Notes: generated from the letters alone by a model not told the origin. A stretch of 64,000 nucleotides of DNA from Candidatus Kaiserbacteria bacterium (GCA_963699165.1 OY969413.1:63506-127505), one strand, 5' to 3'; positions 23,302-40,312 are shown, numbered from the stretch's first letter. A program made the numbers and translations.

Positions 23302-23374
23302 GCTTGGATAGCTCAGTTGGTAGAGCACTTCCCTGAAGAGGAAGGGGTCCCCGGTTCGAGCCCGGGTCCAAGCA
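23302..23374 (+). tRNA. tRNA-Phe (anticodon GAA); integration site (attL) of the downstream element
   Basis: GCTTGGATAGCTCAGTTGGTAGAGCACTTCCCTGAAGAGGAAGGGGTCCCCGGTTCGAGCCCGGGTCCAAGCA. Its 3'-terminal 19 bp is duplicated at ~40111..40129. Confidence 0.9.
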
Positions 23375-23534
23375 CACACTAGTGACAAGTCGAGTGACCG
23401 AGTCACCTCGAATATTTACGCCGTATTTTTCACATTTGGTTCGAGACCTGGAAACGCAGCTAACTTGAGATAGGTTCGGACTCCGAGGAGCATGCCTCCT
23501 GTCAAATAGGTTCAGTTTGAAGTAATATACGCTC

Positions 23535-23912
23535 ATGCATGACCTGACGCCCTATAAAGACAAACCGTCTGACGAGTGGCTTTCTGTTACAGAGAAGTTG
23601 ATTAAGGAACATCCATTAGGACCTGAAGCGATGGTCGCAGTAGTAAAGAAATCATGGGATCAGATTTTCACGAGCAAAATCGGTGGAGTTATCCAGATAG
23701 GAGAAGAGATCGCCCTTACCCCTCAAATGATTGGTAATTTTCTGCATGTATTAGTTGCACATAATCTTTCAGAGAGCTCGCCGGAACTATGGCGGATAGA
23801 GGCTGCCGCTGGGGAAAAAGATGTTGTGTACGTGCCGGACGACTACTACTCATTGTACCGACCCCTATTCTTCAGACCACTTCCTAGACGAGTGAAGATA
23901 GTGTACGGGTGA
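23535..23912 (+). pseudogene. hypothetical protein, C-terminally truncated by IS-A copy 1
   Basis: The ORF is real-looking up to ~23853. Its last ~19 codons (..RPLFFRPLPRRVKIVYG) are encoded by the IS-A terminal repeat, and the same tail appears wherever IS-A abuts an ORF. Confidence 0.4.
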
Positions 23913-24696
23913 TGTGCGATTTCGCAAACTCTCTCGGTGCCATCTTGAGTGTTGAGTGTATACGCACGGTGTTGTACCGGTGAATTGTCTGATAGATTTC
24001 AGCAACAAGTTCACCAAGCGTATCGAAGCGATTGGGATCGCCCAGATCAGTTTTGAATTTTCCATAGAACGATTCTTGGTACCCGTTCTCCCACGGACAG
24101 CCCTTTTTTGAGCGAGAGATGCTGATGCCGAAATTGATGAGCATCTCTCGGAAGGATGCGGCATTGTATTCCACTCCGTTGTCGCTGTGAAAGATGGTGG
24201 GACGAGGATGGTTGAGAAGTGCCGCGCACAATGCCTGCGTCACAAGTACGGTTCCACCTCGCGTACCAATGGCGAGCCCAACGACACTTCGAGTGTATAC
24301 GTCCATGGTGGTTGCCACACGAATGTCTTTCCCTTTGAAATACACATGAGTGAAATCAGCGACCCATGCTTGATGCGGATAGGCGGGTACAATCCGCATC
24401 AGGAGATTTGGATACTCCACGGCTTGTTTCCTTGATTTCCTCCACCGTCTTCCTCTTCTTCGATATGCTTTGATACCAAAGAGTCGCATGACTCTTTGAA
24501 CCTTCTTTTTGTTCTCCTTGAGATACAGGGCAACTCTCCGGTATCCATACGAAGGAAACTCTCGAAGGACTTCTTCAATACGGCATTTGAGTGCCCAGTC
24601 TTTGTCAGGCTTCTTCTTTTGATACCAGAAGGTGGAACGAGCTATACCAAGAGTACGCGCTGTTGTGCGCGTACCAATCGGAGATTCTTTGCTCAC
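23884..24696 (-). CDS. IS3-family transposase OrfB (DDE integrase core)
   Basis: 270-aa rve domain (..WVADFTHVY..HSDNGVEY..CPWENGYQESFYGKFK..). Confidence 0.85.
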   Translation of the reverse strand: MSKESPIGTRTTARTLGIARSTFWYQKKKPDKDWALKCRIEEVLREFPSYGYRRVALYLKENKKKVQRVMRLFGIKAYRRRGRRWRKSRKQAVEYPNLLMRIVPAYPHQAWVADFTHVYFKGKDIRVATTMDVYTRSVVGLAIGTRGGTVLVTQALCAALLNHPRPTIFHSDNGVEYNAASFREMLINFGISISRSKKGCPWENGYQESFYGKFKTDLGDPNRFDTLGELVAEIYQTIHRYNTVRIHSTLKMAPREFAKSHITRTLSSLV

Positions 24697-24950
24697 TTCT
24701 TTTTTTGGGTTTCAGACAGCTTGAGCGTCATGAGTCCAACAAGACGAAGGAGTTCGTCATTCTCTTTTCGAAGTCTCGCAATCTCAAGAACAGATGCGGT
24801 ACCGTCTTGCACTTTCGCACCAAGCCAGCCATAGATGGTGGTCTCGTGGATACCATGCTCTTTGGCCGCTTGGGCGACAGTGACACCATCGTTCTTGATT
24901 CGATTAATGATTTGTTCCTTCACCTCAGGAGCGATGCGGTATTGCTTCAT
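24693..24950 (-). CDS. IS3-family transposase OrfA (HTH)
   Basis: 85 aa: MKQYRIAPEVKEQIINRIKNDGVTVAQAAKEHGIHETTIYGWL.. with a leucine-zipper tail. Confidence 0.85.
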   Translation of the reverse strand: MKQYRIAPEVKEQIINRIKNDGVTVAQAAKEHGIHETTIYGWLGAKVQDGTASVLEIARLRKENDELLRLVGLMTLKLSETQKKK

Positions 24951-25029
24951 ATGACGTCATTCTAGCGGTTAATCCCGTCTAGAACATGGTCTGAAATTTG
25001 GGGGTCAGGTCAATTGTCATCCATAAGTT

Positions 25030-25587
25030 CTATCTCTGCTTATATTTTCCCACAATCCGCTTTTTAATATCCTCGAGTTCTCGTTCGTTGAAAAGTTTAT
25101 CGTACTTCCATATTTTTCCTCCTGTGTCGAAAGCGCCGATGTATTGTTCACAATAAATTCTCGGATTAATGGCATACGCAGCGCCGCGTCGTTCCCAACC
25201 CGATGTCATGCCGTAGTCGTAGATGATATCGTGACCCAACGATCCTATCCATTGATGCGCGAGAATATTTCGCCAGTCGTGGATTATTTCGGCGATCTTG
25301 GAGAATTTTGTATCCTCAGAGTCACCATCGACATATGTCTCCAAGAACCATTTATATCCATCGAGTCCATTTTGGTCGACAAACACCTCCGCAATTGTCA
25401 GGGCGACGGCATGAATGCCGAGAAAAAGAAGTGTCGTTTGAGCCTGTCCGACCGTGAGCTCGATTTCATTATTGAAAAAATTGTCGATGGAATTCAGTAA
25501 TGTCTCGATAGCTTCAATCGGATGACCGTTTTGAAGACGTTGCAATCGATGTTCTTTTGACTCCGATTCGTGGGCGTTATTTCTCAT
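25030..25587 (-). CDS. hypothetical protein downstream of the serine recombinase
   Basis: 185-aa ORF with protein-like composition and no recognisable domain. Confidence 0.45.
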   Translation of the reverse strand: MRNNAHESESKEHRLQRLQNGHPIEAIETLLNSIDNFFNNEIELTVGQAQTTLLFLGIHAVALTIAEVFVDQNGLDGYKWFLETYVDGDSEDTKFSKIAEIIHDWRNILAHQWIGSLGHDIIYDYGMTSGWERRGAAYAINPRIYCEQYIGAFDTGGKIWKYDKLFNERELEDIKKRIVGKYKQR

Positions 25588-25633
25588 ATCTCTGGAGTAT
25601 AGAGCAAATTTCTGGTAAGGAAATTCCCAGATG

Positions 25634-26983
25634 CTAGATATTGCTCAGATCAACGTTTCCCATTATTACTTCTCGGTCTTTTAGTATCAACTGACTTTTA
25701 AGGCATGACAGTAGTTCTCGCTTTTCCGTAATCGTACCGTCCTTAAGTAAATATTTTGCATAGGTACGTATGTCGATATCGGGTGCACGATCTTTTTTCT
25801 TCGCACCGAGCACGCCCATTCGGAATTTGTTATATCGCACGATCTCTTCTTCTATTTTTTCTCGCATACCAATCTCATCCAGGTCGAGTGTGTCAAGCAG
25901 TTTCGATAGTTCTTCGATTAGTGCAGTCTCGTTAATGGCCGGATTCGTGCAGTCGGTTTTTGTACTTCGCGTACACATATAGTACACATGGCGATTCGCG
26001 CCTCCATTCTTCAGTTTCTTGAATTTCTCATCGGCAGTGATGCCGCTTCCGCAGTATCCGCATTTAATGAGTTTCGTAAATGCGAACTCCTTGCTCTCGG
26101 TCTTGGGGATATAGCGATCAGTGACCGCTTCATGTACTTTGTCGAATAATTCCTTCGTAATGAGTGGCTCATGTTTACCTTGATACCAATTGCCGCTCTC
26201 GACCGGGTATTCAAATTCGCCGTAGTAGAAGGAGTTGTGAAGAAGGAGAAAGATATTCCCTAAGGAAAGTGTTTTGCCGGTTCGTGTCTTGAATCCCATT
26301 TTCTTGAGCCACCGAAATACATCTCTACCACTCCATCCATCGTTACCAACTTTCTCGAATATCTGACGCACTACAATTGCGCGTTTCGGATCAGGTCGTA
26401 CTTGGCACTTCTTGTCGACATTCTTTTCTGGAAGATATCCGGTTGGTGCAACGCTCGGCCGCCATCCCGTTTCGCAACGTGCTCGCAGTCCGCGCTTCAC
26501 ATTGATTATTTTTTGATCGTTCTCGAGCTTCGCCTGCGAGCCGAGAATCATGAGCATGAATTTCTCGTTCGGATTGTTTGTGAATGTCTGACTATAGGTG
26601 CGGATCTCAACGAGCTTCTTTTGGTCAAACAGATCCACGACGGCGCCAAGGTCTCCGGCGTTACGACTTAACCGATCCGGTGCCCACGTCAGAATGCCGT
26701 TGAATTTGCCACATCGAATATCATCGAGAAGTTGGTTGTATATCGGCCTTTGGCCGACTTCCTTAGAGGAGTGCGATTCGCGCTTGATCTCAACGATCTC
26801 GAGACTTTCGCGCGAAGCGATGTCCGTCATTTCTTTCACTTGTGATTCGATGGAAAGAATTTGCCGATCTTCTTCCAAAGTACTTTTTCTTGCATAAAGG
26901 CAGTATTTAACCTTGATGGGTTCCGGTTTGACGGCCTGCCTCATAATGCCGCTAAAGGGTGCCCGAATTGCTGTTTGTGTCAT
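25634..26983 (-). CDS. large serine recombinase (integrase of the tRNA-Phe element)
   Basis: An N-terminal resolvase catalytic domain (YARKST..S..Q..) is followed by a recombinase domain, a Cys-rich zinc ribbon (CGYCGSGI..YYMCTRS) and a C-terminal coiled-coil. It reads toward tRNA-Phe. Confidence 0.85.
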   Translation of the reverse strand: MTQTAIRAPFSGIMRQAVKPEPIKVKYCLYARKSTLEEDRQILSIESQVKEMTDIASRESLEIVEIKRESHSSKEVGQRPIYNQLLDDIRCGKFNGILTWAPDRLSRNAGDLGAVVDLFDQKKLVEIRTYSQTFTNNPNEKFMLMILGSQAKLENDQKIINVKRGLRARCETGWRPSVAPTGYLPEKNVDKKCQVRPDPKRAIVVRQIFEKVGNDGWSGRDVFRWLKKMGFKTRTGKTLSLGNIFLLLHNSFYYGEFEYPVESGNWYQGKHEPLITKELFDKVHEAVTDRYIPKTESKEFAFTKLIKCGYCGSGITADEKFKKLKNGGANRHVYYMCTRSTKTDCTNPAINETALIEELSKLLDTLDLDEIGMREKIEEEIVRYNKFRMGVLGAKKKDRAPDIDIRTYAKYLLKDGTITEKRELLSCLKSQLILKDREVIMGNVDLSNI

Positions 26984-27135
26984 ACAGACACAAGGAATGA
27001 CGCTGACCGCTCTAGGAGTCCAGAGCGTCCGATGCCCTGAGTTGATAAGAAACGGCTTTATTTCAGGTCATTTTTGTGCTAAAATCACAAAATCCACTCA
27101 CTCTGTGGTCACTTTAAATTGGAGAAAAATAGCTA

Positions 27136-28586
27136 TGTTTGAAAATTCATTCAAAAATATAGACCAAATACTTCATACAGATTCTGGTTCAGCCACTGAA
27201 CTGGACTATGTCGAGCAGACATCGTGGATTCTCTTTTTGAAATACCTTGACGATTTGGACGAGGCAAAGAAAACGGAATCGGCCTTAGCAGGCAAAAAAT
27301 ACAGCTATATTCTTGATCCGCAGTATCGTTGGAACACTTGGGCTGCTCCAAAAACCGCTGATGGGAAAATAGATCATAACAAGACGCTCGACGGTGATGA
27401 TTTAAATGATTTCGTGAATCAAAAGCTATTTCCGTATTTGAAAAAATTTAAAGCCGAGGAACCGAATACTATTGAATATAAGATTGGTGAGATTTTTAGC
27501 GAGCTTAAGAATAAGATTTCTAGCGGCTATAAGTTGCGTGAGATTTTGAATATTGTTGATCGGATGCACTTCCGTCTATATGAAGAGAAGCATGAGCTGT
27601 CGCACCTCTACGAGGCAAAAATTAAAAATATGGGAAATGCCGGTAGAAATGGTGGCGAATACTACACACCGCGACCTCTTATTAAAACCATTGTAAAAGT
27701 AGTCGCGCCGACCATCGGCGAGACAATCTATGACGGTGCCTGTGGCTCGGCAGGATTCTTGGTGGAGTCGTTTAATTTTCTTACGCAGAATCAAGCCAAG
27801 CTGTCATCGGCGCAGATGGCGACACTTCAGAACAAGACGTTTTATGGAAAAGAAATAAAATCCCTTGCCTACATTATCGGCATCATGAATATGATCCTGC
27901 ACGGTATTGAAGCGCCGAACATCAGGCATATGAACACGCTCGCGCAGAACATTAACGACATTCAAGAAAAAGACCGCTACGATATTGTTCTAGCCAACCC
28001 TCCTTTTGGTGCGGGTATTGGGCGAGAGATTCAGCAAAACTTCCCCATAAAGACTGGCGAGACGGCATTTCTATTTCTTCAACACTTCATAAAAATACTC
28101 AAAGCTGGTGGTCGCGCGGGAATTGTTATTAAAAATACATTCCTATCCAACACCGACAATGCTTCTGTCAGTCTCCGCAAACTCCTTCTGGAGAACTGCA
28201 ACCTACATACCGTACTCGATCTGCCGGGAGGTGTTTTCGCCGGGGCAGGAGTGAAGACGGTCGTGCTCTTCTTTGAGAAAGGAAAGCCGACGAAGAAGGT
28301 GTGGTTCTATCAGCTGAATCTAAAGCGCAACCTCGGCAAGACCAATCCCCTTAATGAAGCAGACTTGGCAGAGTTTGTGGCGCTACAGAAGACGAAGGCG
28401 GATAGCGAGAATTCATGGAGCGTTGATATCTCAAGTGTTGATCAAAACACCTTTGACCTGTCAGTGAAGAATCCAAACAAAGGTGATGGGGTAGCTCTTC
28501 GTAGCCCTAAAGAGATTTTGAAACAAATGAAGGATTTAGATAAGGAAAGTGAAAAAATAGTGGCATCTCTAGAAAAACAACTATGA
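27136..28586 (+). CDS. HsdM-like N6-adenine DNA methyltransferase (type I RM M-subunit family) with no HsdS/HsdR partner
   Basis: It has an HsdM_N-like N-terminus, an NPPFG catalytic motif and a SAM-binding GACGSAGFL. An RBS GGAGAAAAA precedes the ATG at 27136. Its stop overlaps the start of the SIR2 gene (cTATGA). Confidence 0.8.
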
Positions 28587-29012
28587 AAGAACTAAAAGAT
28601 ATTAAAAAAACAATAGATAGCGCAAACATTAATTTCTTAATTGGATCAGGGTTGTCTAGTCCTTTTCTAGAAATTCTCAACCAAATTGAAACCAAGCTAA
28701 CGAAAGCAGAAAACGAAAAGAACGATGTTGAAGTTTTAAGATTAATGAAGGAATACTTTGAGAAATCGATGCTTGGAAACCTAAAAATCGTTGCTGAAAT
28801 TACTGATAAGGTTAAAGATGGAGTTCTAAAAAATTATGAAGATTTTTATAAGAAAATTAATCACATAGTTTTAAAGAGGGAGAGTTCCATTCTAACAAAA
28901 CAAATTAATGTCTTTACCACAAACGTAGATATTTTCTCTGAAAAGGCGCTAGAAAATACAGGGATTGGAAGGTACCCCTTTCTTCGTACACTCATTCTAT
29001 AAGTATAGGATA

Positions 29013-29795
29013 CTATGCTCTGCTCAGAGCAACAAACTCTCTTGGCGCCATACGCAGTGCTGAGTGAATGCGAGCGGTATTGTGATAGTGGATGGTGAGG
29101 TAGATCTCAGCCACTAATTCACCTAACGTGTCGAATCGGTTCGGATCACCCAGGTCAATCTTGAACCCTTTGTAGAAGGACTCTTGGTAGCCATTCTCCC
29201 AGGGACATCCAGGACGAGACATAGATTGCTGTATGCCGATCGTTGCCACGAGCATCGCATAATCCTTTGAGGCATACTCGCTGCCTTGATCCGAATGGAT
29301 GACACGAGGTGGCGATTTGTGATGCAATGCAGAGAGAAGTGCATTCATGATGAGTTGCGTGCTGTGGGTGGTGAGGACTGACACACCGACAATCTCTCGG
29401 GAATAGACGTCAAGGATGGTAGCGACGTATACCCAGTACCCGTGGTACTTGAGGTAGGTGAAGTCACTCGCCCAGATGTCACCGTCCTGCTCGGGAGTTT
29501 GATGGAGCAAGAAGTTCGGGAATATACTGTCTTTTGTCTTTAGCACAAATCGCTTCTTTGCGGTCCTCCGATATGGTTTGATACCGAACAATTTCATCAC
29601 ACGCAGAATGCGCTTTTTGTTGACTTTGAGGTAGAGTGCCAACCGTTTGTGCCCATAGGCGGGATGGCTATGCAGAGCTTCTTCGATGAGTTGCTTTGTG
29701 TGCCAATCCCTCCGAGCCTGCTTCGGCTCGTAGTACAGCGTACTGCGAGCAATACCGCTCTCGCGTGCAAGAGCACTCTTGTTTTCTCTCATCAA
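29013..29795 (-). CDS. IS3-family transposase OrfB (IS-B)
   Basis: 260-aa rve integrase core (..HSDQGSEYAS..CPWENGYQESFYKGFK..). Confidence 0.85.
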   Translation of the reverse strand: MMRENKSALARESGIARSTLYYEPKQARRDWHTKQLIEEALHSHPAYGHKRLALYLKVNKKRILRVMKLFGIKPYRRTAKKRFVLKTKDSIFPNFLLHQTPEQDGDIWASDFTYLKYHGYWVYVATILDVYSREIVGVSVLTTHSTQLIMNALLSALHHKSPPRVIHSDQGSEYASKDYAMLVATIGIQQSMSRPGCPWENGYQESFYKGFKIDLGDPNRFDTLGELVAEIYLTIHYHNTARIHSALRMAPREFVALSRA

Positions 29796-30052
29796 GAGCC
29801 CCTTTTTTCTCCGTTTGAGAGTTTAAACGTCAATTCTCCGATGAGTGCTTTAAGGAGACCGTTCTCCTTCTTCACTCTGTTGTGCTCAATGATACTCACT
29901 CCTTTTGCAGAGGTGCCAAGCCAAGCATAGATAGTGACGGTACTGACTCCGTGTTCTTTCGCTGCCTCAGCGACACTGATGCCATCGTTTTTGATACGGT
30001 TGATAATCTGCTCCTTAATCTCAGGAGCAATACGGTATGCTTTCTTTGCCAT
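29792..30052 (-). CDS. IS3-family transposase OrfA (IS-B)
   Basis: 86 aa: MAKKAYRIAPEIKEQIINRIKNDGISVAEAAKEHGVSTVTIYAWL.. Confidence 0.85.
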   Translation of the reverse strand: MAKKAYRIAPEIKEQIINRIKNDGISVAEAAKEHGVSTVTIYAWLGTSAKGVSIIEHNRVKKENGLLKALIGELTFKLSNGEKRGS

Positions 30053-31010
30053 AGGTACATTCTAAATTAGCTGCTGGTATTTAGAATGAGTGTCCGACGT
30101 TTGGGGTACCTTGCAGATCGATTTTAATGATGGTTTCAACGGAAGATTCAATCCTAAATATGATGTGGGAAATTTCAAGAAGTCTTATTTCAAGAAGAGT
30201 CTTCATTATGAGAACACGTCCGAAATACCTGTATTTAATATACTGAAGTTACACGGGTCTCTTTCTTGGAAAGAAACTGATAGAGAGATTTATTTGGATA
30301 GTGTCTTGGAACAAGTAAAAGAAGTCGAAAATAATAAAGTGTCTGAATTTTATGATTGTTTCAAAAAATTGATGGTCGTTAATCCAACTAAACAAAAGTT
30401 TGGAGACACATTATTAAATCAACGCTACTACGACTTGCTCAGAATTTTCTCTAACGAACTAGAGAAGGATAATACCGTACTATTCGCGATGGGCTTTTCA
30501 TTTATGGATGAGCACATTTACGACCTAACATTGAGAGTTGCAAATTCTAATCCTACTCTGAATATTTACATATTTAGTCACGGCTCCAAACCGAGTGATA
30601 CCTATCTAAAACTGGAAGCGGATGCTAAAAATAAAAATATAAAAATCCTTATTCCGGAAAGTGGAAAAGAGTACAGTCTAGAAACAATAACTTCAGACTG
30701 TTTTGATAAGATTATTCTCCCTGAAAAAGAGGTTGGCAAAGGGCTTATAGATACTTCATTGCCACAAAAAGATGACTGACGACCTTACCTTAATGGAGAA
30801 ATACATAATTGATAACTCAATTTTTAGAATTGGGAAGGTTATTGAAATATCAGGTCAATCTGTAAAAGTAAAAGTAGATACTGGGAAAAACACATCCTCA
30901 ATCTTGTATAAGGGGGAGATAATGCAAAATATTTCTGTACAAGGATATGTGAAAATAAAGAAGTGGAAGGTACCCCTTTCTTCGTACACTCATTCTATAA
31001 GTATAGGATA

Positions 31011-31793
31011 CTATGCTCTGCTCAGAGCAACAAACTCTCTTGGCGCCATACGCAGTGCTGAGTGAATGCGAGCGGTATTGTGATAGTGGATGGTGAGGTA
31101 GATCTCAGCCACTAATTCACCTAACGTGTCGAATCGGTTCGGATCACCCAGGTCAATCTTGAACCCTTTGTAGAAGGACTCTTGGTAGCCATTCTCCCAG
31201 GGACATCCAGGACGAGACATAGATTGCTGTATGCCGATCGTTGCCACGAGCATCGCATAATCCTTTGAGGCATACTCGCTGCCTTGATCCGAATGGATGA
31301 CACGAGGTGGCGATTTGTGATGTAGCGCAGAGAGAAGTGCATTCATGATGAGTTGCGTGCTGTGGGTGGTGAGGACTGACACACCGACAATCTCTCGGGA
31401 ATAGACGTCAAGGATGGTAGCGACGTATACCCAGTACCCGTGGTACTTGAGGTAGGTGAAGTCACTCGCCCAGATGTCACCGTCCTGCTCGGGAGTTTGA
31501 TGGAGCAAGAAGTTCGGGAATATACTGTCTTTTGTCTTTAGCACAAATCGCTTCTTTGCGGTCCTCCGATATGGTTTGATACCGAACAATTTCATCACAC
31601 GCAGAATGCGCTTTTTGTTGACTTTGAGGTAGAGTGCCAACCGTTTGTGCCCATAGGCGGGATGGCTATGCAGAGCTTCTTCGATGAGTTGCTTTGTGTG
31701 CCAATCCCTCCGAGCCTGCTTCGGCTCGTAGTACAGCGTACTGCGAGCAATACCGCTCTCGCGTGCAAGAGCACTCTTGTTTTCTCTCATCAA
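31011..31793 (-). CDS. IS3-family transposase OrfB (IS-B copy 2)
   Basis: Identical to 29013..29795. Confidence 0.85.
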   Translation of the reverse strand: MMRENKSALARESGIARSTLYYEPKQARRDWHTKQLIEEALHSHPAYGHKRLALYLKVNKKRILRVMKLFGIKPYRRTAKKRFVLKTKDSIFPNFLLHQTPEQDGDIWASDFTYLKYHGYWVYVATILDVYSREIVGVSVLTTHSTQLIMNALLSALHHKSPPRVIHSDQGSEYASKDYAMLVATIGIQQSMSRPGCPWENGYQESFYKGFKIDLGDPNRFDTLGELVAEIYLTIHYHNTARIHSALRMAPREFVALSRA

Positions 31794-32050
31794 GAGCCCC
31801 TTTTTTCTCCGTTTGAGAGTTTAAACGTCAATTCTCCGATGAGTGCTTTAAGGAGACCGTTCTCCTTCTTCACTCTGTTGTGCTCAATGATACTCACTCC
31901 TTTTGCAGAGGTGCCAAGCCAAGCATAGATAGTGACGGTACTGACTCCGTGTTCTTTCGCTGCCTCAGCGACACTGATGCCATCGTTTTTGATACGGTTG
32001 ATAATCTGCTCCTTAATCTCAGGAGCAATACGGTATGCTTTCTTTGCCAT
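31790..32050 (-). CDS. IS3-family transposase OrfA (IS-B copy 2)
   Basis: Identical to 29792..30052. Confidence 0.85.
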   Translation of the reverse strand: MAKKAYRIAPEIKEQIINRIKNDGISVAEAAKEHGVSTVTIYAWLGTSAKGVSIIEHNRVKKENGLLKALIGELTFKLSNGEKRGS

Positions 32051-33246
32051 AGGTACATTCTAAATTAGCTGCTGGTATTTAGAATGAGTGTCCGACGTTT
32101 GGGGTACCTTGCATAAAGAATTGCCATTAATAGACAATACTTGTTTTTTACTCACAAAAGAGGAGTTTAATAAAATCCATGAATTTGTTAATAAAGATGA
32201 CAAACCTATCGAAATAGGAAGATTGGAATACGACGATGGTCAAAAAATAGAACTAGGCATAAACAAATTATTTGCTAGCCATATAGGTATATTTGGTAAT
32301 ACTGGAAGCGGTAAATCATATACGCTCGCAAAAATCTATAGAGAATTATTCAAAATCTTTAAAGATAGTCCGAAATTTCAAAAAAATGCAAAGATCTTCC
32401 TGATTGATTTTAATGGCGAATATATTGGAGAACTGGAAGAGAGTACTGGTAAATACAAAAGTAGAGATGTAATCGTTGAAGAGAAATATAAGAATATATA
32501 CGAACTAACGACGAGAAAAAAGATTGAAGATATTACGGAAGAAGAAAAGTTTCCTATCCACGAATCAGCAATAAAAGATTCTACGTTTTGGTCAATTTTT
32601 CTCTCGGCAACTGAAAAGACCCAGATACCTTTTTTGGAGAGAGCTATTAGAGATACTTATATTGAAGAAAGATTGAAGAAAGAGAAATCTTTTAAAGACC
32701 TTCTTAGTGCCAAGATATTTGATGCAGTAACACAAATAGACAAAAAGACCGAGAAGAGTGTAATAACGGATTTGTTAAACGAATTATTTCATTATTTAGA
32801 TAAAAACGAATCTATAAAAGAAGCGGAGAAATACTTCAGAGAGAACTACGGTATTTTCCAAAAGGAGGGAAAATCAGTATTTAAGTTAAATAAAAATAAT
32901 GCAGATCACTACTCGGATAATGCTAATGACATAAAGACATTTCAGGATGATATAAATGAGCAGGTTGCAAAAATATCGGAAGTAAAAGTCGACGAACTGT
33001 CCACAATAAAGAGATTGGGGCTACAAATCATAATTAAATACTACGATGAAATGATTCGTGGATTTTCAAACAGAGAACATCTCTCTCCTTTGATCAAGCG
33101 ACTTGACCAAAGGATTTTGGATCTAGAGAAGGTCTTAGTAGTAGTGGAAAAAATCAGTAAATCTGAAAAGAACTTCACTGTTATTGACCTGACCCCCAAA
33201 TTTCAGACCATGTTCTAGACGGGATTAACCGCTAGAATGACGTCAT

Positions 33247-33504
33247 ATGAAGCAATACCGCATCGCTCCTGAGGTGAAGGAACAAATCATTAATCGAATC
33301 AAGAACGATGGTGTCACTGTCGCCCAAGCGGCCAAAGAGCATGGTATCCACGAGACCACCATCTATGGCTGGCTTGGTGCGAAAGTGCAAGACGGTACCG
33401 CATCTGTTCTTGAGATTGCGAGACTTCGAAAAGAGAATGACGAACTCCTTCGTCTTGTTGGACTCATGACGCTCAAGCTGTCTGAAACCCAAAAAAAGAA
33501 GTGA
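33247..33504 (+). CDS. IS3-family transposase OrfA (IS-A copy 2)
   Basis: Identical to 24693..24950. Confidence 0.85.
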   Translation: MKQYRIAPEVKEQIINRIKNDGVTVAQAAKEHGIHETTIYGWLGAKVQDGTASVLEIARLRKENDELLRLVGLMTLKLSETQKKK

Positions 33505-34313
33505 GCAAAGAATCTCCGATTGGTACGCGCACAACAGCGCGTACTCTTGGTATAGCTCGTTCCACCTTCTGGTATCAAAAGAAGAAGCCTGACAAAGACT
33601 GGGCACTCAAATGCCGTATTGAAGAAGTCCTTCGAGAGTTTCCTTCGTATGGATACCGGAGAGTTGCCCTGTATCTCAAGGAGAACAAAAAGAAGGTTCA
33701 AAGAGTCATGCGACTCTTTGGTATCAAAGCATATCGAAGAAGAGGAAGACGGTGGAGGAAATCAAGGAAACAAGCCGTGGAGTATCCAAATCTCCTGATG
33801 CGGATTGTACCCGCCTATCCGCATCAAGCATGGGTCGCTGATTTCACTCATGTGTATTTCAAAGGGAAAGACATTCGTGTGGCAACCACCATGGACGTAT
33901 ACACTCGAAGTGTCGTTGGGCTCGCCATTGGTACGCGAGGTGGAACCGTACTTGTGACGCAGGCATTGTGCGCGGCACTTCTCAACCATCCTCGTCCCAC
34001 CATCTTTCACAGCGACAACGGAGTGGAATACAATGCCGCATCCTTCCGAGAGATGCTCATCAATTTCGGCATCAGCATCTCTCGCTCAAAAAAGGGCTGT
34101 CCGTGGGAGAACGGGTACCAAGAATCGTTCTATGGAAAATTCAAAACTGATCTGGGCGATCCCAATCGCTTCGATACGCTTGGTGAACTTGTTGCTGAAA
34201 TCTATCAGACAATTCACCGGTACAACACCGTGCGTATACACTCAACACTCAAGATGGCACCGAGAGAGTTTGCGAAATCGCACATCACCCGTACACTATC
34301 TTCACTCGTCTAG
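33501..34313 (+). CDS. IS3-family transposase OrfB (IS-A copy 2)
   Basis: Identical to 23884..24696. Confidence 0.85.
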   Translation: MSKESPIGTRTTARTLGIARSTFWYQKKKPDKDWALKCRIEEVLREFPSYGYRRVALYLKENKKKVQRVMRLFGIKAYRRRGRRWRKSRKQAVEYPNLLMRIVPAYPHQAWVADFTHVYFKGKDIRVATTMDVYTRSVVGLAIGTRGGTVLVTQALCAALLNHPRPTIFHSDNGVEYNAASFREMLINFGISISRSKKGCPWENGYQESFYGKFKTDLGDPNRFDTLGELVAEIYQTIHRYNTVRIHSTLKMAPREFAKSHITRTLSSLV

Positions 34314-36083
34314 GAAGTGGTCTGAAGAATAGGGGTCGGTACACTTTGCCTCCTTCGCTCTTATAAGAAGATTCTGTGCGGGATTGTATCCACCTCTCGT
34401 TGTTTCCTGCTTTACGATAAGTTCTTGGTCGGCATCCTTCTCGTTTAACGGATATGGCGGCGGAGGCGTATATGAACCTTCTGGAATGCGAATCTTTCCC
34501 GCCAAACGATCGCGCATTTCCGAAAACGCAAACCATAGCGCCATCAGTGCATCGCCAGTGTGGCCATCGGGGAACGCTCGCATTTCATTTACGAGTTGCG
34601 CGACGAGTTGTCGCGTTCGCGCGTCACTCTGACTATAAGGAAGGATGATCTTCCTCTGTTCAAAGAGAACCGCTAAACTATTCACGCCGATCGCTGGGTC
34701 ATTCTTTTCTCCGCCGGTCTTGTAGCTGGTGACGAGTGCACCGGAGTCGCCCAAGTCGCGATACATCATTTCCTGAAATCCGTTCGTCTCGACACGAGTT
34801 GCGGTCGGTCTCACGATCGCTTCATTGCGGATGACCATATCGCACGTTTCTTTCGGTGAGAACTTCCCGCGCCGTATGTTGCGAAGCACATAGTCGCCAA
34901 CTTTAAAAGTTCCGTCCGTTGAGCCGCGGAGAACACGGTCGAGAGTGAGAAGAACGGTGTCGTCATTCCAATTCTCGGTAGCGATAGCGAGATCGAGACC
35001 AGCGGTTGTCATTTCCACGTCATACTCGGTATACGGCGCGTCTTGCAAGATCAAGTCCTTGCCCTTAGCAAGTGCTGCTTCAATGTCCTTCTCAAGGAAC
35101 TTCTGATTCGGACGAATTGAAGGATCACACATATACATGCGTGCGAAGGCATATGGATTGGCGATGCGTTTCAGATAAAGATCTCCGTACGAGAAACGCT
35201 CCGGCCAGAGGACATCTATACCTTCCTCCATTTCCGCTTTATGCTCGGCACGATACTCGCTCGCTTTTGCTGTTTTTTCTTCAGGTGAAAGCGATTCATC
35301 GAGATGGATATTTGCCCATTCCTGCCACATATCCTGACGATTCGCTTCGTGCAGTATCGATGGTACGCGTTTTCTCACTTGAAATTGCGGGTCCTTGAGA
35401 AGATTGTTCATCAAGTCGTCCATGTGCCATGTGTTGCCAAGACAGATGAGACGACCGTCCGTCATTAAGACCGGCAGAAGCGTCGTGTATACCCAATCCT
35501 TGATCTTCGCACGCTGCTCCTCGGTCGCGGCGTTTTCCTGCGTCACCACATCATCAAGAATGATGATATCGGCACGCTTGGAAACGATTGACCCGAAGAG
35601 ACCGACGGCATTTACAGTCGGATCTTTTAGATTCAGTCCTTCGCGCTCGACCGTGAAAGAACTTCCGGTCCAATGTTCCTCACGTTTCTTTCCGTGACGC
35701 AGGCGCGGGGCGACACTGCGACGCTTCGGGTCGATCATCTTCGACCAAAGTCGATATTTCGGATTGCGCTCGATGTGCCCAATGATATCTGAAACGAATC
35801 CACGCGCGATTTCGCCAGTGCTCGATACGAGAAGAATGCGAATCTCGCGATTTTTGGCGATCTCCCAGAGAGGGTATGCGATGGAGCTATGGGTTGATTT
35901 ACCAAAACCGCGCGGCATCGCGATGGCGAGTTTTTGATAGGTATAGTTGGAGAGAGCATCGTCAAGTTCGTCCTGAAACGGCGCATTGTTTAGACCAATA
36001 ATTTCGGACACGAAGACGCGAAAATGCTCGGCCGCTATCGCGCAAAAGACGGCCGCTTCTTCAAGTTTTGGAATGTTACCCAT
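34302..36083 (-). CDS. terL: phage terminase large subunit (ATPase + nuclease); last ~14 codons supplied by IS-A copy 2 (C-terminally truncated)
   Basis: It has Walker A AMPRGFGKST and Walker B IIILDDV, followed by a C-terminal RNaseH-like nuclease domain. The start is taken at MGNIPKLEEAAVF; the longest ORF begins at 36122. Confidence 0.75.
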   Translation of the reverse strand: MGNIPKLEEAAVFCAIAAEHFRVFVSEIIGLNNAPFQDELDDALSNYTYQKLAIAMPRGFGKSTHSSIAYPLWEIAKNREIRILLVSSTGEIARGFVSDIIGHIERNPKYRLWSKMIDPKRRSVAPRLRHGKKREEHWTGSSFTVEREGLNLKDPTVNAVGLFGSIVSKRADIIILDDVVTQENAATEEQRAKIKDWVYTTLLPVLMTDGRLICLGNTWHMDDLMNNLLKDPQFQVRKRVPSILHEANRQDMWQEWANIHLDESLSPEEKTAKASEYRAEHKAEMEEGIDVLWPERFSYGDLYLKRIANPYAFARMYMCDPSIRPNQKFLEKDIEAALAKGKDLILQDAPYTEYDVEMTTAGLDLAIATENWNDDTVLLTLDRVLRGSTDGTFKVGDYVLRNIRRGKFSPKETCDMVIRNEAIVRPTATRVETNGFQEMMYRDLGDSGALVTSYKTGGEKNDPAIGVNSLAVLFEQRKIILPYSQSDARTRQLVAQLVNEMRAFPDGHTGDALMALWFAFSEMRDRLAGKIRIPEGSYTPPPPYPLNEKDADQELIVKQETTRGGYNPAQNLLIRAKEAKCTDPYSSDHFLDE

Positions 36084-36495
36084 GGTCGTTTGTTTTAGGG
36101 TGATTAAGATACGGTTCGACAAGCCGCTTGGTTTCGGGTTTCAGTGTTCCGAACACTTCGAAGAAGATATTTTCATCTTCATCACGAGCGATGGCGAAGG
36201 CGGACTCGAAGGCGCGCTGACGATAATCGGGATGCTTATTTTTCAACCAGAATATCGTTGCCGTGAGATTGCCGTTTTTGATGCCGGAGAGTATCTGACT
36301 CTCGGCGGCATCGTTCATGAGCGCCGTGCCTTCGGCGAGCGCGTCATCAACGAACTTCGCGAATTCCGAATCTTCTTTCTTCCACCTGTACAGGCTCGCG
36401 CGACTCATGCCGGTTTTCTGACATGCGACTTCAATGATCGGCGTTTTGCGTAATTGTTCAAGCAACAATTCTTTGGTACGAATAGTCTTTTTCAT
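36076..36495 (-). CDS. phage terminase small subunit-like HTH DNA-binding protein
   Basis: 139 aa with an N-terminal HTH (..KTGMSRASLYRWKKEDSEF..) immediately upstream of terL. Confidence 0.5.
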   Translation of the reverse strand: MKKTIRTKELLLEQLRKTPIIEVACQKTGMSRASLYRWKKEDSEFAKFVDDALAEGTALMNDAAESQILSGIKNGNLTATIFWLKNKHPDYRQRAFESAFAIARDEDENIFFEVFGTLKPETKRLVEPYLNHPKTNDHG

Positions 36496-37274
36496 ATTTG
36501 TTTTGCTTTAAGGTTGGTACAGTGCTCCCAGCGAGAAATCGCTGTGAGGCAATATTCGAGATCAATTTCGACCGCGAAGCATCGACGCTTCGTTTGCTCG
36601 CACGCTAACAGCGTGGTACCGCTGCCAAGAAATCCGTCGTATACCACATCGCCGATTTCGCTTGAGTTGAGAATCAAACGACGAATAAGTCCGATGGGTT
36701 TGGTTGTCGGATGAAATTTGCTTTTGACAGGACGCGGATAGAACAAAACCGACTTATCTTTTGAGTGACGGAATATATGCGTGCCATGCCAGCCGTAAAG
36801 GATCAATTCATGTTGGGGTGCGTAATCGAGGCGACCGATAACCGCTTGCGATTTCACCCACACAAGAAGCTGCGCGACCTTGAATCCAGCGTCTAACATT
36901 CCTTCGCGAAGCGACCACACCATTTTGTCTGCATTGAACACATACGCGGCGTTTTTTCGGGCGAGATAAGGAGCGATTGTTTCAAGCCATGCGCGGTTGA
37001 ACGCCCGATATGATTCATCGGATTGTAGTTCGTCGTTCGCAACAATTTTATCTTTTGAGAGTTTTGAGAATCCGCGTTTAGATTCCACTGCCGAGACGGC
37101 ATACGGTACGTCACAACATACGAGATTTATATGGATATTACCTATAAGCCTCTCCAGCAGTTTTTTGTCACGTGCGTCGCCGTATGCGATGCGGTGATCG
37201 CCAAGTTGCCAGATAGTGCCAGGCTTAATTGAGTTTGCGGGCTTTGATTCCAGTTGCGTTTTCATACCGTTCAA
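36492..37274 (-). CDS. DNA methyltransferase (N6_N4_Mtase family, phage-type)
   Basis: It has a DVPY (DPPY-like) motif and the C-terminal SAM-binding motif VVYDGFLGSGTTLLACEQTKRRCFAVEID. Confidence 0.8.
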   Translation of the reverse strand: MNGMKTQLESKPANSIKPGTIWQLGDHRIAYGDARDKKLLERLIGNIHINLVCCDVPYAVSAVESKRGFSKLSKDKIVANDELQSDESYRAFNRAWLETIAPYLARKNAAYVFNADKMVWSLREGMLDAGFKVAQLLVWVKSQAVIGRLDYAPQHELILYGWHGTHIFRHSKDKSVLFYPRPVKSKFHPTTKPIGLIRRLILNSSEIGDVVYDGFLGSGTTLLACEQTKRRCFAVEIDLEYCLTAISRWEHCTNLKAKQI

Positions 37275-38508
37275 TAATTACGTCCACGAATATCGGCTCT
37301 GCTTCGACCATGTAGCAGATTCGTTTCATCTGATCGGCGGCCATGAGCGTACTACCCGAGCCACCAAAGAGATCCAGCACCGCATCACCCGGCTTCGTAC
37401 AACGCTTGAGTGGCCGTTCGTGCAAGGTCACTGGCTTTTGCGTCGGATGACAATATTCTTGACTGGCGACGCGTTTCGCTAACCAAATATCCGCTTGATC
37501 CATGATGTCGTCGAGCAGTTTATTGCCTGACGGTCCAAGTTCTTTGTTCAGAACTTCTGCGAAGTTCTGCCCGACGGGTGCGATGTACGGCTTATTGCGC
37601 GTCGCATAGACGCAGGGCTCGTAACACTTTCCGAAGGCTACGCCAGGTACAGGGTTGGCGGGTCCCTTAATCCACAAACAAACTCGGCGATTTACGAGAC
37701 CAGCATCGGCAGAAAGTGACTGCACCATACCAATATATTTTTGGTCGCAGAAAAAGAATATGTGACAATCAGGGTCGCATACAACAAGCGCGTTCTCCAT
37801 CGAGCGTTTCAAGAAAGAACGATATTCTTCGTCTGGTTTCGAGTCGTCTACATTTCCGCCATACGAACCTTTGCCGCCAACGCCACGATCGTAATCAAGC
37901 GAGATGTTATAGGGCGGATCACAATAAATCATTCCGATTTTTGCCCCACAGGTAACTTTCTTTACAGTTTCGATATCGAGCGAACTTCCGCAGGCAAGAC
38001 GGTGCGACCCGAGCGCGTATAGATCGCCAGTTTTCGCCTTCGGTTCCTTCACGCGCTTTACCGCCTCGTCAAAATCAAATTCATCATCCGAAGTTTCAAG
38101 CGCGTCCGCAAAGATAATCGACAGATCCGAATCATCGAAGCCCGATGCGAGCATCGTATCGATATCGAAGTATTGGGAAATGAGACCATAATCCCAATCG
38201 CCATGAATACGATTACTTGAAAGCAGGTAACGATCGTACTCCGCCTTTGTGAGCTTTCTCGAAGGAACGCGTACTGGAATTTCTTCATCGATACGACCCA
38301 TGGCGGCTAACGCGGCGATACGCTGATGACCTGCAACTAGAGAGTTATCAAGGTCTATAACAGGAGCTTCAACAATTCCGAATTCTTTCAAGCTCTTTTT
38401 GAGGTCTGTCATCTGTTTCGGACTCATAATCCTTGGATTGTGTGGATTCTGAACGAGGTCGGAAACTTTTCTCGTCTCCGTCGTCCACGTGAGCGGCTGC
38501 TTTTTCAT
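37225..38508 (-). CDS. ParB-like nuclease domain fused to DNA methyltransferase
   Basis: It has an N-terminal ParB/Srx domain (..IVEAPVIDLDNSLVAGHQRIAA..) and a C-terminal MTase (..MIYCDPPYNISLDYD.., ..VLDLFGGSGSTLMAA..). The start is chosen at MKKQPLTW; the longest ORF begins at 38613. Confidence 0.75.
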   Translation of the reverse strand: MKKQPLTWTTETRKVSDLVQNPHNPRIMSPKQMTDLKKSLKEFGIVEAPVIDLDNSLVAGHQRIAALAAMGRIDEEIPVRVPSRKLTKAEYDRYLLSSNRIHGDWDYGLISQYFDIDTMLASGFDDSDLSIIFADALETSDDEFDFDEAVKRVKEPKAKTGDLYALGSHRLACGSSLDIETVKKVTCGAKIGMIYCDPPYNISLDYDRGVGGKGSYGGNVDDSKPDEEYRSFLKRSMENALVVCDPDCHIFFFCDQKYIGMVQSLSADAGLVNRRVCLWIKGPANPVPGVAFGKCYEPCVYATRNKPYIAPVGQNFAEVLNKELGPSGNKLLDDIMDQADIWLAKRVASQEYCHPTQKPVTLHERPLKRCTKPGDAVLDLFGGSGSTLMAADQMKRICYMVEAEPIFVDVIIERYENATGIKARKLN

Positions 38509-38627
38509 ATCGGTATATTTGCTGTTAAAAGGCGCATCGCGCGCCCTACAGCAGATACCCACGACTTTCGGCATTTTTGTGACATATAAAAAGCCGCATG
38601 GAAGCGGCTTCAACGGGGAATCCTATT

Positions 38628-39689
38628 TTAGGACAGTAATGGCTTCAGTTTCGGGAGAGCGCGGCTTTTCGCCTTTCGTTCGGTAGCAGTGAGAATTTCA
38701 CCGCGATAATCTTTTTCTATGGCCAGTCGCTCTTTTGGAGGGAGCTTTGTGATCGCACGAGCGATATCGATTTCTTGGATATTGATGGTATCAGTATGCC
38801 TTGCGAGTACCGCATCTGCTCGGGTTTCATCATTGAGAATTTTATCCAACGATTCTTCCAAAAAATTATCTTTGATTTCGTACTTGCCGCGCCCGAGGTT
38901 GTAATCTTTATGGCGGAGACGAAGCCTCTCCGGAAGTTCCGATAGATACAAAGGTTTTCGACGCGGCTTAGCAAGCAGTTTCTGCGTCTCATCTACTGCA
39001 AACGTGAGATTGCCAAGGGAAGTTGAGGCATAGAGATACTGGTAGGTCGATTTGAAACCGCTCCATGCGCGCGTAAGACGCCGCATTAAATCTGCACGAT
39101 GAGGCCCACACGGATCCTTTTCCTTTACACGAGCGAGGAGAGCTCCAACCTCAACAATTTCTGCCCGCCTTATTTCGAGCTCTTTAATGGTTTTGCACCA
39201 GCCGCGAATCATTTCTTTTGTAACGGATGGATACTTTCCCCGGATTTCATTCCATGCTTCTGGAGTGAATTGGTCTTCCCATGACCAAAGAATCTCCGAT
39301 TGATGATCTGGAGAGAACGGCGGTTCGGATTCTTCAGAGATTTGCAATAATGGATTATGTAAAGTTTTGCTCTCTTCGTCCAAATATCCTTCGTATAAAA
39401 TTTCGGTTAGGGAATGCAGAGATGCTAAAACTTCGGGCGATTCTTCACAATCTTTGGCCGCAAAAAGGAAGTACTGTAGGCAAATCAATTGCAATTGAAG
39501 GTCGTTGAGGAAGAAAAGATCTGGGTGTTGAGCCCGCTTCAGTGCGAATTCTTTCATAACAAGACCCAGATCTGCCCATACATCTTCTGCCGTGCGTGAG
39601 GGCAGACGCAAACGCAGTTGGAAGTTATGAATGGCTTGATCGAACTTCGTTCGTTCGTGATTGATAACGGTGCTGTGCGGAGTGGTCAT
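38628..39689 (-). CDS. hypothetical protein (phage-like cargo)
   Basis: 353-aa ORF with protein-like composition and no recognisable domain. Confidence 0.5.
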   Translation of the reverse strand: MTTPHSTVINHERTKFDQAIHNFQLRLRLPSRTAEDVWADLGLVMKEFALKRAQHPDLFFLNDLQLQLICLQYFLFAAKDCEESPEVLASLHSLTEILYEGYLDEESKTLHNPLLQISEESEPPFSPDHQSEILWSWEDQFTPEAWNEIRGKYPSVTKEMIRGWCKTIKELEIRRAEIVEVGALLARVKEKDPCGPHRADLMRRLTRAWSGFKSTYQYLYASTSLGNLTFAVDETQKLLAKPRRKPLYLSELPERLRLRHKDYNLGRGKYEIKDNFLEESLDKILNDETRADAVLARHTDTINIQEIDIARAITKLPPKERLAIEKDYRGEILTATERKAKSRALPKLKPLLS

Positions 39690-40059
39690 ACTCTAATTTT
39701 ACCCCCAATTCAAGCTTTTTATTACGAGAGTGTCGTGAGACACGGCTTCGTAGATTCAGCTACTTTTTTATAGCGCTTCATTCGTTTCAATTCTTAGTGA
39801 ATACGCCATATTCCGCCAAGAATGCTACATCAGTCGCATTCTTCGATTTTGACCCCCAGACCGAGTGGCTTCGTCATGCTACACTGAAAGGATGTCAAAA
39901 ACCCTTACGGTGCCTCGCCGGGCAAGGTTCTAGACGGACTTGGGGCACCTGAACGCGAGTGAAAGGCATTGGACAGCATGCCGACTGCTCGGCATGTGGC
40001 CGGGCTCGAATGCCGGAGCGATGTTCGGCTGAAAGCCGAACCGCGAGGCGGGGTAGCGA

Positions 40060-40110
40060 ATCTTAGCAGAATGCGAATGCGTGGAGCATTCTGCTTAGCA
40101 ATTCGTGACC
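40060..40110 (+). other. conserved hairpin element, copy 2, abutting attR
   Basis: GAATCTTAGCAGAATGC-GAATGCGTGGA-GCATTCTGCTTAGCAATTCGTGACC forms a 13-bp near-perfect stem and lies immediately 5' of the 19-bp tRNA-Phe repeat. Confidence 0.45.
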
Positions 40111-40129
40111 GAGCCCGGGTCCAAGCACT
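40111..40129 (+). repeat. attR: 19-bp direct repeat of the tRNA-Phe 3' end
   Basis: CGAGCCCGGGTCCAAGCAC is identical to tRNA-Phe positions ~23357-23375. The upstream T-arm sequence is not conserved, so only the tRNA 3' fragment is present. Confidence 0.7.
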
Positions 40130-40184
40130 TGAACGTCAGTGGAAGGGGTGCACGATACGCGACCGGTTCGTAGTCCTGGGAGGC

Positions 40185-40285: not shown

Positions 40286-40312
40286 GCACCTGAACGTCAG
40301 CGAGAAAATGGG

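Follow-up and report, generated by a model that had tools for sequence, protein, structure and literature searches.

A probable tandem array of integrative elements, one carrying a large serine recombinase, at the 3' end of tRNA-Phe in a Kaiserbacteria genome

The window analyzed here, a 64,000-nt stretch of a Candidatus Kaiserbacteria genome (GCA_963699165.1, OY969413.1:63506-127505), contains a tRNA-Phe(GAA) gene behind which some 16.7 kb of DNA carries a large serine recombinase (LSR) together with defence and phage-packaging genes, and at the far side of which the last 19 nt of the tRNA recur. This introduces the question of what has been integrated at this tRNA: a single island bounded by a 19-bp att duplication, as stated in the original prediction, or several elements side by side. 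From comparison with related loci, we consider it probable that the locus is a tandem array in which tRNA-Phe is followed by an island (E1), two short units (E2 and E3) and the HSP20 gene, with the LSR acting at the 3' terminus of the tRNA gene. E1 would be a compact integrative element moved by the LSR, E2 a non-autonomous mini-element, and E3 an older remnant.

The tRNA-Phe gene, the proposed target of integration, occupies positions 23302-23375 of the plus strand according to ARAGORN and Rfam, and its CCA end is not encoded. We located relatives of this region by means of the aminoacyl-tRNA synthetase (aaRS) gene to the right of the island, which matched only metagenome-assembled genomes of Patescibacteria (Kaiserbacteria/Paceibacteria), at no more than 83% identity. 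Approximately 30 of them keep the order aaRS, PrsW, HSP20, none or one further gene, tRNA-Phe, tRNA-Arg and tRNA-Gly, and place aaRS 1.3-2.5 kb from tRNA-Phe; in the window, aaRS lies 1.4 kb from the second copy of the 19-mer. Because these relatives hold the two sides together, the approximately 16.7 kb between tRNA-Phe and HSP20-PrsW is an insertion. The GC content between the two 19-mer copies (32-51%) is below that of the flanks (53-57%), and both lines of evidence agree with the earlier proposal that the segment was acquired horizontally, at the tRNA-Phe 3' end. The tRNA-Gly/Arg/Phe cluster of this host, a Kaiserbacteria/Paceibacteria-type bacterium of the candidate phyla radiation (CPR), is a hot spot of site-specific integration. 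The window genome is present at 100% identity in the metagenomes SRR27973122 and ERR10755936, and pieces of the island were recovered, again at 100% identity, in two Logan metagenome assemblies whose contigs break at the borders of insertion sequences (ISs).

The 19-mer itself, CGAGCCCGGGTCCAAGCAC, has exactly two matches in the window, also when up to three mismatches are allowed, and none of 100 dinucleotide shuffles gave two matches. The first copy (23357-23375, plus strand) runs from the 3' half of the T-loop to one nucleotide past the discriminator, and the second (40110-40128, plus strand) lacks the upstream tRNA body. The predicted recurrence without the rest of the tRNA, and its restriction to these two sites, were thus borne out, although the second copy lies one base to the left of the position first given (40111-40129).

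What the second copy terminates is E2 (39949-40128, plus strand), a strongly structured unit of 180 bp (folding energy -91.7 kcal/mol, z -6.7) in which an inverted tRNA-Phe 3' end, present in two separate pieces (39966-39974 and 40000-40008), forms base pairs with the 19-mer. A search of positions 39650-40330 against Rfam at E ≤ 10 yielded matches at chance level only. Such units occur elsewhere on their own. L069, a Kaiserbacteria locus that lacks an island, has a homologue of E2 (4720-4897) immediately behind tRNA-Phe, and this homologue ends in a copy of the 3' end of that genome's tRNA-Phe, with 17 of 19 positions identical. Seventeen further tRNAs of relatives (Ser, Arg, Glu, Val and Phe) are followed, 68-310 nt downstream, by an exact copy of 14-24 nt of their own 3' end, and the intervening units are built alike, with a spacer or terminator, the acceptor and T-stem in inverted copy, conserved hairpin blocks and the direct copy of the tRNA end. 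Because these units follow tRNAs without an island, we assign the 19-mer to E2: most likely, the repeat is not an att duplication produced by integration of a 16.7-kb island, as had been predicted, but the terminal tRNA copy of a mini-element.

A second unit of this kind lies in the window itself. The segment 40040-40110 of E2 has an 82%-identical copy at 22824-22895, downstream of tRNA-Arg, in a related mini-element (22748-22969, plus strand) whose terminal copy (22942-22969) corresponds to the 3' end of another tRNA-Arg allele, as found in locus L043. This end cannot pair with the resident 5' end, so the terminal copy is borne by the element. On the other side of E2, a 17-nt repeat, AAGCACYTGAACGTCAG, at 40123-40139 and 40284-40300 brackets the 161-bp remnant E3 (40129-40289, plus strand), which contains 3.4 copies of a 25-bp tandem repeat at 40194-40279. 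Mini-elements also occur in series, as in L064, where three follow one another with a period of 126 nt. When six mini-elements were folded together with RNAalifold, the alignment of their 3' halves was poor, and some covariation was found only in hairpin 1 and one closing helix.

Several observations on these units may be recorded here. Mini-elements of 70-310 bp stand behind Paceibacteria and Kaiserbacteria tRNAs at L008, L009, L015, L017, L048, L050 and L055, and further ones at L064, L065, L072, L073 and L079. At least two sequence types exist, one of the form '...CGCGAGGCGGGGTAGCGAA-hairpin-ATTCGTGAC' and one ending in '...GGTGTACTGAnnCTGTA'. The flank after tRNA-Gly in the window (20903-20922, CAAAACGAATGAAGTGAGAT) is similar to the spacer on the left side of E2 and of the mini-elements in L069 and L009. 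There, 1.5 kb with two open reading frames (ORFs) at 20904-22383 part tRNA-Gly from the glutaredoxin gene, and this may be another remnant of integration; in many relatives the entire gap from tRNA-Gly to tRNA-Arg, glutaredoxin gene included, is about 370-450 nt.

Next, we consider the recombinase. The LSR (25634-26983, minus strand, 449 aa) matches phrog_95 integrase (4e-66) and the Pfam families PF00239 Resolvase, PF07508 Recombinase and PF13408 Zn_ribbon_recom, each above its cut-off, possesses the catalytic motif YARKST, and is apparently intact. It points at the 3' end of tRNA-Phe from a distance of 2.26 kb, or 1.1 kb without the IS copy IS-A1, and is the only recombinase in E1 apart from IS transposases. 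For comparison, we assembled a set of 84 loci, 80 from metagenome and four from viral scans, encoding LSRs 54-83% identical to that of the window; flanks of 10 kb were fetched for each, and genes were clustered over 33 loci. A tRNA lies downstream of the LSR in 32 metagenome and three viral loci, without exception on the opposite strand, so that the LSR always faces its 3' end (median distance, 2.3 kb); a tRNA upstream of the LSR was found in two loci only. The tRNAs next to family LSRs are those for Gln, Ser, Arg, Met, Trp, Asp, Asn, Lys, Glu and Tyr. Kaiserbacteria also encode a second clade of LSRs, 33-38% identical and 515-557 aa in length (L018:3430-5049, L024:2119-3783, L043:2203-3750 and L082:13755-15308), whose ORFs, opposite in strand to tRNA-Glu, tRNA-Ser or tRNA-Gly, overlap the 3' end of that tRNA by 20-68 nt.

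It might be argued that the LSR is a passenger or an invertase and that the island was placed by a tyrosine integrase since lost, for instance through a deletion associated with IS-A1. Repeats of 19 bp from tRNA ends are typical of tyrosine integrases, and a deletion beside IS-A1 has removed DNA between the tRNA and the LSR. However, no Phage_integrase match was obtained among the scanned ORFs (those of the island and a few of relatives), the LSR has the full architecture of an integrase, and its position and orientation with respect to the tRNA 3' end are invariant in 35 loci and recur in the second clade. We therefore regard this explanation as highly improbable. The use of tRNA 3' ends by a serine recombinase is rarely reported, in keeping with the original prediction: Mageeney et al. 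(2020; PMC7192596) found a serine integrase at tRNA genes in 14 of 297 cases, described this as having 'not been reported previously' and as 'requiring experimental proof'. The elements of that TIGER/Islander survey (PMC7192596) resemble E1 in having a serine integrase as the sole integrase at a tRNA gene and in having been mapped computationally. Those cases are scattered, whereas the E1 clade shows a systematic association (35 of 35 loci, in CPR bacteria) together with conserved element ends.

The ends of E1 (23376-39948; 16.6 kb, or about 12 kb without its IS copies) were defined by homology to related loci. On the left, the first 27 nt past tRNA-Phe, ACACTAGTGACAAGTCGAGTGACCGAG (23376-23402, plus strand), which we propose as the P' arm, are also found immediately downstream of tRNA-Tyr (L095), tRNA-Arg (L026) and a tRNA-like fragment (L099). 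A motif related to this end lies 10-30 nt past the tRNA in 19 of 32 LSR-proximal tRNAs versus 11 of 264 control tRNAs, an enrichment whose p-value is inflated by the post hoc definition of the motif. Several of the control tRNAs with the motif resemble occupied sites. The left-end pattern gave no match in IMG/VR. A left-end-type motif was also seen in L088, a 28-kb IMG/VR contig, where it stands (at about 6055-6085) beside a terminator instead of a tRNA and could represent either attP before integration or a site other than a tRNA; in the same contig (L088:529-6002), genes for a type ISP restriction-modification enzyme and Shedu (SduA) flank the LSR.

On the right, the boundary comes from an element in L036 (L036:12824-19684, JAGWVF010000005.1), which has genes for an HTH regulator, a ParB-methyltransferase (MTase) fusion, an MTase and the small and large terminase subunits (TerS and TerL), and lies upstream of a glutaredoxin gene. 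It is most likely integrated at the tRNA-Gly of the same tRNA cluster, and its LSR end lies beyond the fetched flank. Its ParB-MTase, MTase and TerS are 45%, 70% and 50% identical to those of E1, and the homology extends through a conserved non-coding block (39846-39948, plus strand) and ends at about 39948-39954. This is right after a degenerate 23-nt mimic of the tRNA 3' end, GGTTCTAGACGGACTTGGGGCAC (39926-39948, plus strand; the proposed P arm), and before E2. The mimic has the same length and end points (GGTTC...GCAC) as the last 23 nt of tRNA-Phe (23353-23375, plus strand; the proposed B arm), with 14 of 23 identities, and L036 carries GGTTCCAGACTGGGGTGGGGCAC at the equivalent position. 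With the ends so defined, at 23376 and 39948, E1 shares only GCAC with the tRNA end. In L095 there is an internal junction between the mimic and a second copy of the left end, 165 bp from its tRNA, which is the signature of a tandem array. A suspected kinship of the right-end block with the terminal repeats of IS-A had no BLAST support and was dropped.

Contigs of the two independent Logan assemblies end near this block: from the right at 39917, and from the left they begin at 39769 and 39703. The gap of about 147 bp (39770-39916) overlaps the non-coding block conserved with L036, which may be multi-copy in those communities. The breaks at 39917 and 39769 match neither candidate att site; thus, they do not discriminate between the models and were set aside as att evidence.

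These boundaries bear on the reading of the whole region as one island (23376-40109) that the LSR recombined within the T-loop of tRNA-Phe, with the 19-mer as att core and E2 as its right end. The perfect 19/19 identity, unique in the window, is what a classical tRNA-restoring att core would be expected to give, and a repeat running from the T-loop to one nucleotide past the discriminator has the classical geometry. L157 repeats the layout of the window at tRNA-Gln, where a 19-nt repeat surrounds 8.5 kb containing the LSR. It is the only LSR locus with an exact repeat of the tRNA 3' end; the far ends of the others are probably beyond the 10-kb flanks, which could explain the missing repeats. 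On the other hand, units of the E2 type with a tRNA-end copy stand alone at L069 and 17 other tRNAs, the homology between E1 and L036 stops before E2, and the left end of E1 also follows three other kinds of tRNA. Moreover, the mini-element at tRNA-Arg bears the 3' end of a foreign allele, and a crossover in the T-loop would be 31-41 nt away from the left-end motif. Such a distance is outside the usual half-site of an LSR. Taken together, we regard a single island as an unlikely explanation, though one to be kept in view.

In the tandem-array model, the LSR would most likely exchange strands at the extreme 3' terminus of the tRNA gene, within the shared core GCAC; LSRs need only a short shared core. 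The left arm of attB would be a generic tRNA end, from T-loop to acceptor, and the left arm of attP an element-borne mimic of it. The host tRNA would never be cut internally, and related LSRs would be able to use many tRNAs. A crossover at the terminus with a mimic arm would leave the host tRNA intact, and would explain why so varied a set of tRNAs is used and why long repeats are scarce around relatives.

The two models imply different junctions. If E1 crosses over at the tRNA terminus, a circular E1 without E2 would read TTGGGGCAC joined to ACACTAGTGACAAG, and an attP lacking E2 would read GGACTTGGGGCAC joined to ACACTAGTGAC; if E1 is separable from E2, an empty site that keeps E2 would read GGTCCAAGCAC joined to CTGAACGCGAGTG, and an empty site of TCCAAGCAC joined to CTGAACGCGAG would likewise be at odds with a single island. 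If instead the 19-mer is the att core of E1, the circular junction would be ...TTCGTGAC-CGAGCCCGGGTCCAAGCAC-ACACTAGTG, and a circle of E1 plus E2 would read TTCGTGACCGAGCCCGGGTCCAAGCAC joined to ACACTAGTG. With E2 as part of E1, the empty site would then be TCCAAGCAC joined to TTGAACGTCAG or, without E2, GGTCCAAGCAC joined to TTGAACGTCAGTGG.

Several points weigh against the array, in addition to the perfect identity of the 19-mers and the post hoc motif. The position of the crossover, at GCAC or in the T-loop, is one that we infer from comparison, and L157 means that E2 could be the right-hand end of E1-type elements. The right ends of other family members lie outside the 10-kb flanks. No convincing tRNA-mimic right ends were found in the tRNA-Arg to tRNA-Phe elements of L026, L038, L044 and others. 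A search of 30 loci for upstream inverted copies of the tRNA-proximal arm, made to locate right ends, returned noise only. Dyad symmetry in the attP and attB sequences reconstructed under both models was not above that of shuffled controls, and neither an excised form nor an attP was observed. The empty tRNA-Phe site proposed as a check was likewise recovered by synteny in about 30 genomes and not at the nucleotide level, the tRNA-Phe flanks of other species being too diverged and many having an extra gene.

What, then, does E1 carry? Behind the tRNA comes an N-terminal fragment of a ScaI-like type II restriction endonuclease (23535-23853, plus strand; Pfam RE_ScaI 3e-28, PADLOC REase_II), and between it and the LSR lies a 185-aa ORF with no assigned function (25030-25587, minus strand), in the cargo position between LSR and tRNA. 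Divergent from the LSR is the gene for an HsdM-type N6 DNA methyltransferase (27135-28586, plus strand; Pfam N6_Mtase 6e-66, PADLOC MTase_I 1e-159), whose ORF is open from 26913 and whose likely start is the ATG at 27135. Then follow the defence genes SIR2 (28583-30779, plus strand; positions 16-142 and 147-328 of 347 in the PADLOC profile) and the ATPase HerA (30772-33182, plus strand; positions 4-55 and 108-444 of 618). The stop codon of HsdM and the start of SIR2 overlap as ATGA (28583-28586), which suggests translational coupling between SIR2-HerA and a type-I-like methylase that has neither HsdS nor HsdR. The same region gave weaker PADLOC matches to components of MADS (mad2 3e-50, mad8 7e-9).

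On the minus strand beyond lie TerL (34302-36122; phrog_38 1e-72 and BLASTP against L086), TerS (36076-36495, 139 aa; PHROGs TerS families, relatives 40-55% identical), an N6/N4 DNA methyltransferase (36492-37274, 260 aa; Pfam N6_N4_Mtase, phrog_498) and a fusion of a ParB-like domain with an N6/N4 DNA methyltransferase (37225-38613, 462 aa; Pfam, phrog_498 and the ParB-like phrog_620). The last gene, also on the minus strand, is a 353-aa ORF with no assigned function (38628-39689), in the position held in relatives by a variable regulator before ParB-MTase. Neither this ORF nor the 185-aa ORF had a match in Pfam, PHROGs or PADLOC or a homologue among the fetched loci. Pfam, PHROGs and PADLOC thus recovered the LSR directed toward the tRNA, both terminase subunits, the ParB-MTase fusion and the second MTase of the original prediction, and no capsid, portal, tail or lysis gene was matched in the island by Pfam or PHROGs, in line with the predicted absence of capsid and tail genes.

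The predicted MTase-SIR2-HerA operon, and with it the mixed cargo, is present in its genes and is no longer intact. Repeat analysis revealed four copies of IS3-family elements of two types, which were missed in the original prediction and make up 28% of the island. Both types encode HTH_Tnp_1 and rve domains (Pfam), and 3-bp target-site duplications were found, ATG for IS-A3 and GAT for IS-B1. IS-A is 1159 bp long, with ends TG...CA and a 3-bp target duplication, as defined from a clean copy at 56757. IS-A1 (23854-25014, minus strand; orfA of 85 aa with HTH_Tnp_1, orfB of 270 aa with rve) cuts the ScaI-like nuclease, which covers positions 2-102 of the 192 in its profile. IS-A2 (33183-34343, plus strand) is 100% identical to IS-A1 and inverted with respect to it; it truncates HerA at profile position 444 of 618 and connects it to the 3' end of TerL, whose final 14 or so codons lie within the IS, the remainder being full length compared with the 52%-identical homologue in L086. 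IS-B1 (28966-30115) lies inside SIR2, and removal of it and one GAT restores an in-frame ORF of 347 aa. IS-B2 (30964-32113) lies inside HerA without a target-site duplication, with a loss of about 50 profile positions and a +1 frame shift.

The flanks of IS-A1 (CAT/ATT) and IS-A2 (AAG/ATA) show no target-site duplication, and they neither match nor cross-match, which argues for adjacent deletions and not for a single inversion. An inversion between the two copies was rejected on these 3-bp flanks and because the gene fragments do not rejoin. No intact adjacent SIR2-HerA pair is present in the window, and the defence cargo is dead, since SIR2, HerA and the ScaI-like nuclease are all split or truncated by IS copies. 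At least three deletions are associated with the IS insertions, and E1 is a decaying remnant, ordinary in itself, with its LSR still intact. Outside the island, an IS nest at 55034-57945 consists of IS-A copies at 55034-56192 and 56757-57917 with three tandem partial IS-B ends (56193-56759) between them; six full IS copies in 64 kb is an unusually high load for a CPR genome. A class A bacterial RNase P RNA lies at 14011-14457 on the minus strand (122.5 bits).

Such decay also raises the possibility that E1 is what remains of a full temperate phage at tRNA-Phe whose portal, capsid, tail and lysis genes were removed by IS-mediated deletions. TerS and TerL are phage hallmark genes, the missing target-site duplications at both IS-A copies and IS-B2 imply that deletions occurred, and IS-A2 sits exactly at the 3' end of TerL, the usual place of the portal gene. 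The relatives, however, speak against it. The core of the family consists of a LexA/S24 repressor on the opposite strand, which the window copy does not have, followed by a variable regulator, ParB-MTase, sometimes an MTase, TerS, TerL and the LSR. From ParB-MTase to LSR these genes are contiguous, with TerL abutting the LSR, in 11 loci; in the remaining loci TerL and LSR are separated solely by non-conserved ORFs on the opposite strand. Across the 33 related loci there is no conserved gene cluster beyond the core and no capsid, portal or tail gene. The closest TerL, that of L086, is followed by methylases and a glycosyltransferase and no portal. The order in the window, with TerL, HerA-SIR2-HsdM on the opposite strand, LSR, cargo and tRNA, is that of L135 and L092, so the loss from the window element need be little more than the C-terminus of HerA. 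We therefore consider a degraded prophage very improbable.

Since in relatives TerL directly precedes the LSR or defence cargo and never structural genes, we infer that the family is satellite-like, and of the two possibilities first offered, a phage satellite or a degraded prophage, the former is retained. The terminase of the elements would package them into the capsids of a helper phage. The family has the gene content of a broadly defined PICI-like element, which is an element of 5-20 kb with an integrase, a regulatory switch and packaging genes and without virion structural genes. Cargo occupies three slots, upstream of the repressor, between TerL and LSR, and between LSR and tRNA. Among the annotated ORFs of loci with other layouts, it includes type I and ISP restriction-modification, Mrr, Shedu, SIR2, SMODS, caspase, trypsin-like and 8xMP proteins. 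Two considerations count against the satellite assignment. It is drawn from gene content, with no helper phage, replication module or recombination directionality factor identified, and CPR phages could have structural genes so divergent that they escape recognition, although no extra conserved cluster exists. No primase, helicase or rep match was obtained among the scanned ORFs of the island or the few relative ORFs tested, the core genes of relatives having been identified by similarity only.

How does this family compare with known systems? The LSRs of phiC31, Bxb1, A118, SPbeta and SCCmec (Ccr) have the same Resolvase, Recombinase and zinc-ribbon domains, with the gene at the element end beside att. 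The targets of the phiC31 type and SCCmec are protein-coding genes or repeats, whereas the E1 family uses the 3' ends of many different tRNA genes. In SCCmec, too, elements accrete in tandem and bring defence cargo to a conserved 3'-end target. Phage satellites (SaPI/PICI, cf-PICI, P4-like, PLE and PICMI) are, like the E1 family, small elements with an integrase, a repressor or regulator switch, TerS and hot spots of defence genes, and without tail or lysis genes. The E1 family differs from them in its LSR in place of a tyrosine recombinase, in having TerL with TerS but no portal or capsid, in its CPR host, in the lack of a recognized primase or replication module among the scanned ORFs, and in having no known helper phage. 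The cf-PICIs carry portal and capsid.

The tycheposons of Prochlorococcus, 27 of 937 of which carry an LSR (bioRxiv 10.1101/2020.12.28.424599), also integrate at tRNAs in a streamlined genome, with cargo-carrying and PICI-like forms and partial tRNA copies. Unlike the E1 family, they mainly possess a tyrosine recombinase and replication genes, and carry TerS or a capsid protein instead of TerS, TerL and ParB-MTase together. The CIMEs related to ICESt1 and ICESt3 of Streptococcus thermophilus represent site-specific accretion at tRNA or fda att sites. They resemble the mini-elements as short, recombinase-less units with att-type repeats, alongside which a full element integrates to form tandem arrays; the mini-elements differ in being only 70-310 bp long, in their conserved hairpins and inverted tRNA-end copy, and in recurring at many tRNAs. 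The searchable literature gave no description of a capsid-less family with TerS, TerL, ParB-MTase and LSR or of mini-elements trailing tRNAs, which does not prove their absence.

The interest of this locus is in the family and its target logic and not in the decaying copy of the window. We tentatively suggest, as a possibility somewhat short of an even chance, that Paceibacteria and Kaiserbacteria of the CPR harbour a large, undescribed family of capsid-less, terminase-bearing elements and their mini-derivatives, mobilized by serine recombinases through generic tRNA 3' ends, with crossover at the terminus and a tRNA-mimic arm. If this is true, then it would explain how one recombinase clade uses a dozen tRNAs and why arrays of mini-elements stand behind tRNA genes, and the elements would be a principal carrier of defence systems in genomes that contain little other mobile DNA. 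Serine integrases are valued tools of genome engineering, and protein-coding genes are regarded as their natural targets. A clade systematically found at tRNA 3' ends would represent a target logic of a new kind, all the more so if generic features of tRNAs are what it reads, and would supply integrases with predictable, universally present landing sites. The mobile elements, phages and defence systems of CPR bacteria are poorly known, and the family shows routes by which restriction-modification, SIR2-HerA, Shedu, CBASS-like and caspase-like systems are transferred; it also suggests that phage satellites exist in the CPR.

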